A stretch of 14,132 nucleotides of DNA from a virus (Duplodnaviria > Heunggongvirae > Uroviricota > Caudoviricetes). This document shows positions 1 to 941 of the stretch, one piece after another; position 1 is the stretch's first letter, and every line of letters begins with the position of its first letter. The stretch lies in IMG/VR virus record IMGVR_UViG_3300026224_000012; one strand, written 5' to 3'. The position numbers were made by a program, and so were the translations under genes. The notes beneath the pieces are model-generated. The model was not told the origin of the DNA, did not search any database, and saw only the letters and a program-made list of their open reading frames with translations.

Positions 1-73
1 CGCCCTGACTTTCCAGAACCATACGAACTGCCCGTTGACGGACTTCGGGGGAAAAACGAGTATTTTTAGTCAT
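1..73 (-). CDS. IS3-family transposase OrfA, N-terminal 24 codons (partial at window edge)
   Basis: Minus-strand translation from ATG at 73-71 gives MTKNTRFSPEVRQRAVRMVLESQG, which I recognise as the OrfA N-terminus of IS629-type elements. SD GAGG lies 8 nt upstream. Confidence 0.8.
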   Translation of the reverse strand, partial: MTKNTRFSPEVRQRAVRMVLESQG

Positions 74-127
74 CCTGTTTACCTCTTTCTCAGGAAGTTT
101 AGTCTCCAGGATTCCCGGGGCGGTTCA
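1..127 (-). mobile_element. Left terminus of an IS3-family insertion sequence (IS629/IS1203-like), partial, continuing beyond the window start
   Basis: Reverse complement of 70-127 reads TGAACCGCCCCGGGAATCCTGGAGACTAAACTTCCTGAGAAAGAGGTAAACAGGATG, i.e. an IS3-family TGAAC terminus followed by an SD and the transposase ATG. Identification as IS629-like is from memory of that element's end sequence. Confidence 0.8.
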
Positions 128-227
128 GTTTCCGTTCTGGTCAGAGTCCACTCTGAAACGCACATTTGCAAGCCTGAAATCACTTGGGGTTTTGCGTCGC
201 GAGCAACTCAATAAATCGAAGCGTGAC

Positions 228-941
228 ATGACCAACTTCTACACGATCAACTATGAAAGTGAGCTTTTAGAAGAGGTCAAAGTGAACGAATCCATCAGGT
301 CAAAATGCACTTCTCCATCGGGTCAAAGTGACCTGATGGATGGGCGCAAAATGACACGATCCATTGGTTCAAAACGACACGCTGTCATCGGGTCAAAATG
401 GCCCAATGATCTTACAGAGAATACAACAGAGATTACTACAGAGAATAAAACCTCTTCTCGTCCGGACGCTTCGCAACCGGACACGCAAACGGCTGAACAG
501 GAGTTTTTAACTCGCCATCCTGATGCGGTTGTATTCAGCCCTAAAAAGCGCCAGTGGGGAACGCAGGATGATTTGACTTGCGCACAGTGGCTCTGGAAAA
601 AAATCATCGCCCTGTACGAGCAGGCCGCCGAATGTGACGGCGAGGTGGTTCGTCCCAAAGAACCGAACTGGACAGCATGGGCAAACGAAATTCGCCTGAT
701 GTGTGTGCAGGATGGTCGTACTCACAAACAAATCTGCGAGATGTACAGCCGCGTCAGCCGCGATCCGTTCTGGTGCCGTAACGTGCTCAGCCCGTCGAAG
801 TTGCGGGAAAAATGGGATGAGCTTTCCCTGCGCTTATCGCCGTCCGTCAGCACGCACACAGAAAAACGTGAAGACCCGTACTTCAAAGCCAGTTACGACA
901 ACGTGGACTACAGCCAGATCCCGGCAGGATTCAGGGGGTGA
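228..941 (+). CDS. Phage replication initiator, O-like, with origin iterons inside the coding sequence; possibly a 5'-truncated fragment
   Basis: Long ORF (track 192-941, TTG start; first ATG at 228). The frame is open upstream all the way to the IS junction at 128 with no ATG, and the iterons lie only about 150 bp from the IS end. Function is inferred from the lambda-O-like arrangement of origin repeats within the gene and its position ahead of a nin-like region. Confidence 0.55.
   Translation: MTNFYTINYESELLEEVKVNESIRSKCTSPSGQSDLMDGRKMTRSIGSKRHAVIGSKWPNDLTENTTEITTENKTSSRPDASQPDTQTAEQEFLTRHPDAVVFSPKKRQWGTQDDLTCAQWLWKKIIALYEQAAECDGEVVRPKEPNWTAWANEIRLMCVQDGRTHKQICEMYSRVSRDPFWCRNVLSPSKLREKWDELSLRLSPSVSTHTEKREDPYFKASYDNVDYSQIPAGFRG
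274..403 (+). repeat. Six direct iterons at about 23-bp periodicity, candidate initiator-binding sites of the replication origin
   Basis: Core GGTCAAA(A/G)TG(A/G)C begins at 275, 298, 321, 344 (degenerate GCGCAAAATGAC), 367 (GTTCAAAACGAC) and 391. The copy at 321-333 is palindromic (GGTCA-AAG-TGACC). The core TCAAAACGA resembles the lambda ori iteron as I recall it. Confidence 0.7.
414..449 (+). repeat. AT-rich region with three 12-bp direct repeats, candidate DNA-unwinding element of the origin
   Basis: ACAGAGAATA at 415-424, ACAGAGATTA at 427-436 and ACAGAGAATA at 439-448, immediately right of the iterons, as in ori-lambda. Confidence 0.55.

Follow-up and report, generated by a model that had tools for sequence, protein, structure and literature searches.

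An IS629-type insertion interrupts the O-like replication initiator gene of a prophage

We analysed a 14,132-nt stretch of viral DNA (IMG/VR record IMGVR_UViG_3300026224_000012), hereafter called the window, and found that its replication initiator gene is interrupted by an insertion sequence (IS) of the IS629 type. The left end of the IS opens the window and directly abuts the 3' part of the initiator gene; the 5' part, absent from the window, was located next to the other IS end in a near-identical genome. According to our explanation, an IS629-type element of ~1.3 kb (IS3 family) would have inserted by transposition at codon 60/61 of the initiator gene, with duplication of the trinucleotide GTT, the host element being, on this account, a lambdoid prophage of the SfII/mEp460 type. 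The insertion would part residues 1-60, together with the promoter on the pR side and the ribosome-binding site, from residues 61-330; no full-length initiator could be made and the origin DNA would remain intact. We regard this explanation as a whole as very likely, namely a simple IS629-type insertion that split the initiator, left the origin intact, presumably abolished replication and happened recently. The features on which it is based are as follows.

Positions 1-127, minus strand: left end (IRL side) of the IS629-type, IS3-family IS (identity to IS3-family transposase loci and to the element of phage PA4)
Positions 1-73, minus strand: start of orfA, 24 codons (MTKNTRFSPEVRQRAVRMVLESQG) beginning with the ATG at 73-71 (translation; annotation of the matching loci as IS3 family transposase)
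Positions 128-130: GTT, right-hand copy of the 3-bp target-site duplication (junction of the sister contig compared with the window; intact gene)
Positions 128-941, plus strand: 3' remnant of the O-like replication initiator gene (alignment with the intact allele, PHROG 391, homologue lengths)
Positions 192-230, plus strand: the sole in-frame starts that the remnant retains, TTG at 192 and ATG at 228 (list of open reading frames, gene-caller products)
Positions 270-408: origin iterons, six copies with a 23-bp period (repeat search and shuffle test)
Positions 410-453: A-rich tract with 35% GC and three 12-bp repeats of the TACAGAGAATAC type, directly after the iterons (repeats and composition)
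Positions 938-1432, plus strand: PerC-family gene, which follows in the same early rightward operon and has a GTG start at 938 that overlaps the initiator stop at 939-941 (list of open reading frames, Pfam)

The IS end and the initiator remnant

The window holds only 127 nt of the IS, and the rest of the element lies off the window. The first-pass annotation had placed the IS terminus at 127, which was borne out by the window sequence and by the identity of the IS. The left terminus reads GGCGGTTCA up to 127 and is followed by GTTTCCG; on the minus strand the IS begins at 127 with TGAACCGCCCCGGGAATCCTGGAGACTAAAC, and the terminal inverted repeat, from 127 downward on that strand, is TGAACCGCCCCGGGAATCCTGG. 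Transcription of orfA points away from the phage gene. Over their full length, positions 1-127 were identical to loci that carry the annotation IS3 family transposase (eight records are listed at 100%), at least 80% of this segment was covered by 2,897 plasmid records, and copies in Stx-converting phages and phage phi456 showed 99.2-100% identity. A 1,310-bp element at 24,350-25,659 of phage PA4 has been named IS629 (PMC4587872). Its left end was identical to positions 1-127 at 120 of the 127 nt compared (94.5%), and its right end matched all 22 nt of the right IS end found in the sister contig described below. The two IS ends have TG...CA termini and form imperfect inverted repeats that agree at 20 of the 22 positions seen. 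Judged by these identities, 'IS629-like' is a fair label for the element. IS1203 and IS3411 are iso-elements of IS629. A literature search for the terminal sequence together with IS629 gave no match.

The remnant at 128-941 runs from the last base of codon 60 through codon 330 to the stop codon at 939-941, and has no native start codon. Its frame is open from 39, across the junction, to the stop. Reading of the open frames thereby confirmed the earlier description of a frame that is open from the junction, with TTG at 192 and ATG at 228 as the first starts. The product from ATG 228 is 237 aa long and is reported by gene callers for truncated alleles, while an exact-sequence look-up of the product from TTG 192 returned no match.

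Comparison with intact alleles identified what is missing. By megablast, 160 complete E. coli genomes match window 126-941 (99.8-100% identity among the listed hits), and phage mEp460_4F5 matches it at 97.9%. The intact alleles encode 330 aa, are 100% identical to the window from 126 onward, and continue for 177 nt further upstream. The intact gene of E. coli GF153 is 993 nt long and encodes a 330-aa product annotated as 'hypothetical protein' (WP_000054957.1); the sequenced phage mEp460_4F5 also carries a full-length initiator gene, the annotation of which begins at the fifth codon. PHROG 391 ('replication initiation O-like') aligned with the intact protein over profile positions 1-298 (E 1.3e-101) and with the window remnant only over 48-298 (E 1.8e-94). 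A search of 5.8 billion proteins (E <= 1e-5) retrieved 1,439 relatives. Nearly all of the 120 listed among them are 321-330 aa long, and the few shorter ones are mostly partial, truncated or located on short contigs. In an alignment of 13 homologues with 69-98% identity, residues 9-60 were mostly near-invariant. The intact 330-aa alleles and the coverage of PHROG 391 show that an O-like initiator gene is interrupted by the IS and has thereby lost the part that encodes its N-terminus, as had been claimed from the window alone. A natural start at 228, which the first-pass annotation had named as the contrary case, was rejected, because a conserved N-terminus of 60 residues is present in nearly all the listed homologues and the shorter ones are partial or truncated.

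The function of the protein is assigned from the PHROG annotation and from the layout of the gene and its origin. The intact 330-aa protein had no Pfam hit at E <= 0.01 (Slx4 and Cdc6_C appeared below threshold at E <= 10), did not match PF04492 (Phage_rep_O), and had neither an NCBIfam hit nor a sequence hit in the PDB. The family is named 'hypothetical protein' in RefSeq and is labelled only by PHROG 391. Since it falls outside Pfam and NCBIfam, automated pipelines miss both the initiator gene and its disruption.

A different lesion of the same gene was observed in contig 355 of Logan ERR8651049, in which CAG is replaced with the nonsense codon TAG at codon 29 (2151-2153). This allele (Q29) was the match retrieved with the ATG-228 product, and it leaves the same 237-aa open reading frame, from the ATG equivalent to window 228. 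As read from its sequence, the Q29 lesion is an independent knock-out of the same initiator gene. The cluster of the 237-aa product (P0012) has 76 member sequences, and truncated alleles of the initiator may be recurrent. The second knock-out represented by the Q29 allele and this 76-member cluster fits recurrent selection and neutral decay equally well.

The other half of the gene in a near-identical genome

Among 5,426 complete E. coli RefSeq genomes none covered the junction, and the junction pattern was absent from GTDB species-representative genomes and from JGI metagenome contigs. IMG/VR was the sole database with the junction among those searched. In IMG/VR, UViG_2547132272_000008 has the same right junction and ends 26 nt into the IS, and it differs from the window by one mismatch in 11,205 overlapping nt. 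The lone mismatch is at window position 5600, in the ORF-poor interval between Q and the holin gene (5377-5863).

The left junction was sought in IMG/VR with a pattern composed of the upstream part of the intact gene and the IS terminus, and was found on contig _000024 of IMG genome 2547132272. This contig carries, in order, a cI-like repressor gene (HTH_3 and Peptidase_S24 domains), Cro, a CII-like gene, and orf112; the initiator gene then begins and is broken off after 182 nt by the right end of the IS. The contig terminates with the flank GGCTGGAGCAGTT joined to the IS right end TGAACCGCCCCGGGTTTCCTGG. When the two junctions were compared, the contig read GGAGCAGTT joined to TGAACCGCC and the window read GGTTCA joined to GTTTCC. 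GTT is thus present on both sides of the IS, the left side being taken from the near-identical IMG/VR genome, and occurs singly in the intact alleles. When the left flank was joined to window 131-941, a 993-nt open reading frame was reconstructed, which was identical to the GF153 gene (WP_000054957.1) at 993 of 993 positions. Because the 3-bp duplication is shared and the reconstruction is perfect, the sequences of the two junctions indicate a simple and recent transposition. For the left junction, the evidence is drawn from a public genome that is near-identical to the window and not from the window's own record, and both sister contigs end inside the IS, so that linkage across a single IS copy is deduced from the matching duplication. 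The first-pass annotation had proposed to extend the sequence leftward in search of the other IS end, a target duplication, and N-terminal codons beyond it. In the near-identical genome this extension yielded the GTT, the 182 nt of the gene, and the immunity region; the DNA beyond the IS on contig _000024 is phage DNA with the missing N-terminal codons rather than non-phage DNA.

The IS could instead mark a rearrangement, in which recombination between two IS629 copies deleted or inverted the DNA on the left, so that the N-terminal part and the immunity region would not be adjacent to the remnant in the window's genome. In the window and in both IMG/VR contigs the sequence ends within the IS, and IS629 is multi-copy in many E. 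coli genomes, occupying up to 50 places per genome. However, deletion or inversion between different IS copies normally leaves non-matching flanks, whereas both junctions were found here in one near-identical genome with a matching 3-bp duplication, and together they rebuild a perfect gene. We therefore consider a rearrangement quite unlikely. The same reciprocal junction, with a target duplication correct for the IS3 family, also opposes the view that the right junction is an assembly artefact, that is, a chimeric contig end at which a read from a repeat was joined to phage sequence. Although the window begins inside a repeat, as is typical of breaks in short-read assemblies, an independent public record that differs by one base elsewhere contains the same junction, and an artefact is scarcely credible. 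The simple insertion remains our preferred reading of the two junctions.

Origin, predicted fold, and consequences of the break

The iterons have four strong copies, at 293-315, 316-338, 362-384, and 386-408, with the core CATCGGGTCAAAATG. The window contains five matches to their consensus, where 0.49 would be expected, and five were not reached in any of 200 shuffles; the iterons, the reading frame, and the A-rich tract are far beyond chance expectation. The distance from the IS end to the first iteron copy is 143-166 bp, in agreement with the earlier estimate of about 150 bp. In the intact gene the iterons lie at nt 322-460, inside the initiator coding sequence, and the earlier argument that their position relative to the IS end betrays a lost 5' part, which was drawn from lambda, holds. 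In lambdoid phages, the origin iterons and an AT-rich tract are located within the coding sequence of the initiator itself (PMC7466680). By analogy with this layout of the lambda origin, the A-rich tract is presumed to be the DNA-unwinding element. A perfect 13-nt inverted repeat (290-302 and 329-341; ATCCATCAGGTCA and TGACCTGATGGAT) spans the first two strong iterons, and its sequence could form a cruciform or a hairpin in the origin.

The insertion follows nt 182 of the intact gene and separates residues 1-60 from residues 61-330. If the interior of the IS is like that of the PA4 element, the upstream fragment comprises 61 native residues followed by 12 IS-encoded ones. To locate the break in the protein, we used an AlphaFold model built from 14 close homologues, which is of low confidence (mean pLDDT 54). 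The model has helices at residues 14-20, 22-37, 56-60, and 66-78 and strands at 82-85 and 97-100. Residues 14-100 show the secondary structure of a winged helix, with pLDDT of 46-73 in this region; residues 108-184, whose coding DNA comprises the iterons and the A-rich tract, are disordered in the model, and a helical domain at 179-297 is better predicted. A Foldseek search of the PDB gave no match at E <= 0.001, and the top matches were weak (E 0.04-1.2), namely the iteron-binding initiators of the RepA_N type (4pql, 5kbj) and the N-terminal domain of DnaD (2v79). The model thus suggests, with low confidence, that the N-terminal region of ~105 aa is a winged helix. On this reading, the break would lie between the second and third helices of the predicted winged helix. 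The earlier statement that the IS split the initiator from its N-terminal domain is therefore right in that N-terminal codons were removed, but the break falls inside the predicted winged-helix region and not between domains. The initiator would accordingly be built of an N-terminal part of ~105 aa, a linker whose coding DNA is the origin, and a helical C-terminal domain.

The remnant might still be a working initiator if the product from TTG 192 or ATG 228, or an IS-phage fusion from 39, suffices for replication. The frame is indeed open across the junction from 39, gene callers report the 237-aa product, and translation that started upstream of 192 would keep the predicted helix 66-78 (the recognition helix), the wing strands, and the C-terminal domain. 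There is, however, no start codon between 39 and 192. The product from 192 would lose the predicted helix 66-78 entirely, and that from 228 would lose the first wing strand as well. In addition, no sigma-70-like promoter able to drive the remnant was found in 1-1000, and residues 1-60 are near-invariant among the homologues with 69-98% identity, nearly all listed homologues being of full length. A working remnant is thus highly improbable. It has also to be asked whether the split locus has been retained as useful, the iteron array and the initiator fragments titrating or poisoning the initiator of incoming phages with the same specificity. Either the C-terminal initiator fragment or the 61-aa N-terminal fragment would be a candidate for poisoning, and a comparable 'inhibition phenotype' has been reported for cloned fragments of the lambda replication region (PMC3349717). 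If this were true, the split locus would provide a repressor-independent exclusion of phages with the same replication specificity; we find such a role very doubtful.

Under the preferred explanation of a simple insertion into the initiator gene, the prophage would be unable to start its own theta replication after induction, and self-replication has probably been lost. An initiator of the same specificity, provided in trans, could still allow the prophage to be replicated. Since the 1.3 kb IS is antisense and separates Q (window 4625-5377) from the early rightward promoter region, it may also lower rightward early transcription downstream, including that of Q.

State of the prophage and comparison with known systems

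The rest of the prophage appears to be in good order. Across the downstream 13 kb, from the PerC-family gene to the portal gene, ~17 open reading frames were checked and had near-full-length Pfam matches. The early part encodes PerC-like, Dam methylase, a LexA DNA-binding-domain protein, RusA, KilA-N, DUF968, and the antiterminator Q; the lysis part encodes two holin-family proteins, a GH19 endolysin, an N6/N4 methyltransferase, and Rz; and the packaging part encodes an HNH endonuclease, the small and large terminase subunits, and the portal. No tRNA genes were found in the window, and no helicase loader of the P type or DnaC type was recognised by Pfam among its genes.

Several details of this gene content are worth recording. 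The position of lambda P is occupied by the homologue of PerC-family regulators (938-1432). The 108-aa protein encoded at 2082-2408 consists of the LexA DNA-binding domain only, with a full PF01726 match and without the S24 peptidase domain; judging from this composition, it would be a LexA mimic that cannot be cleaved, encoded in the early region of the phage. Two DNA methyltransferases are encoded, one of the Dam family in the early region (1432-2085) and an N6_N4_Mtase (7202-8125), the gene of which sits between those of the endolysin and the lysis protein Rz in a moron-like position. The HNH endonuclease gene (9977-10396) is just upstream of the small terminase gene (10514-11008). A location of HNH next to the small terminase is the usual arrangement for HNH-assisted cos cleavage.

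The first-pass annotation had called the prophage cryptic and domesticated. The former term may be right in the functional sense. The latter was not supported: the ~17 checked reading frames look full length, the reconstructed gene has no differences in 993 nt, and an immunity region is present in the sister genome. Since the reconstructed gene has no substitutions and the downstream reading frames look full length, the sequences point to a fresh knock-out rather than to an old cryptic remnant; the lack of other decay in the gene and the 13 kb next to it is likewise the reason to regard the insertion as recent. For annotation, we suggest that the 237-249 aa reading frame at 192/228-941 be marked as a pseudogene fragment derived from an O-like initiator, and that the prophage, despite its complete look, be classed as probably replication-defective. 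The case also illustrates that, where a contig ends in an IS, a simple insertion may be concealed, its other half lying on another contig. Beyond annotation it matters little, the event being of an ordinary and well-documented kind and the affected initiator family being common but poorly annotated.

IS629 insertions that split prophage genes, including roi and the genes for lysozyme and a methyltransferase, have been described as the main source of variation among Stx2a phages (PMC4587872). In those cases a prophage gene was split into two open reading frames, as here, and the IS629 copies in lambdoid prophages of E. coli O157:H7 and Shigella have the same TG...CA ends, 3-bp duplication, and terminal sequence. 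The present insertion differs from the known ones in its target, which is the replication initiator of an SfII/mEp460-type prophage.

The interrupted locus resembles lambda O and its origin in several respects. The initiator gene follows cro and cII in the pR operon, the iterons begin ~320 nt into the initiator coding sequence and end at ~460 nt, followed by an AT-rich tract, and the protein has an N-terminal DNA-binding part (predicted in the present case), a linker, and a C-terminal part, in keeping with its assignment to PHROG 391. In contrast to lambda O, the initiator matches neither Pfam Phage_rep_O nor any other curated family, and the weak fold matches point to the winged helices of RepA_N and DnaD-N. 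The origin has six repeats with a 23-bp period and a consensus different from that of lambda, and the initiator gene is followed not by a P-type or DnaC-type loader gene but by the PerC-like and Dam genes.

Defective prophages with inactivated replication genes are known from E. coli K-12, in which yfdO of CPS-53/KpLE1 is affected, and from the pool of defective prophages in O157 Sakai. The present prophage is like these in that the replication gene is out of action and the other modules are kept, and complementation by co-resident phages is possible. It differs from them in that a single lesion is visible, which is precise, reversible in principle, and free of sequence decay.
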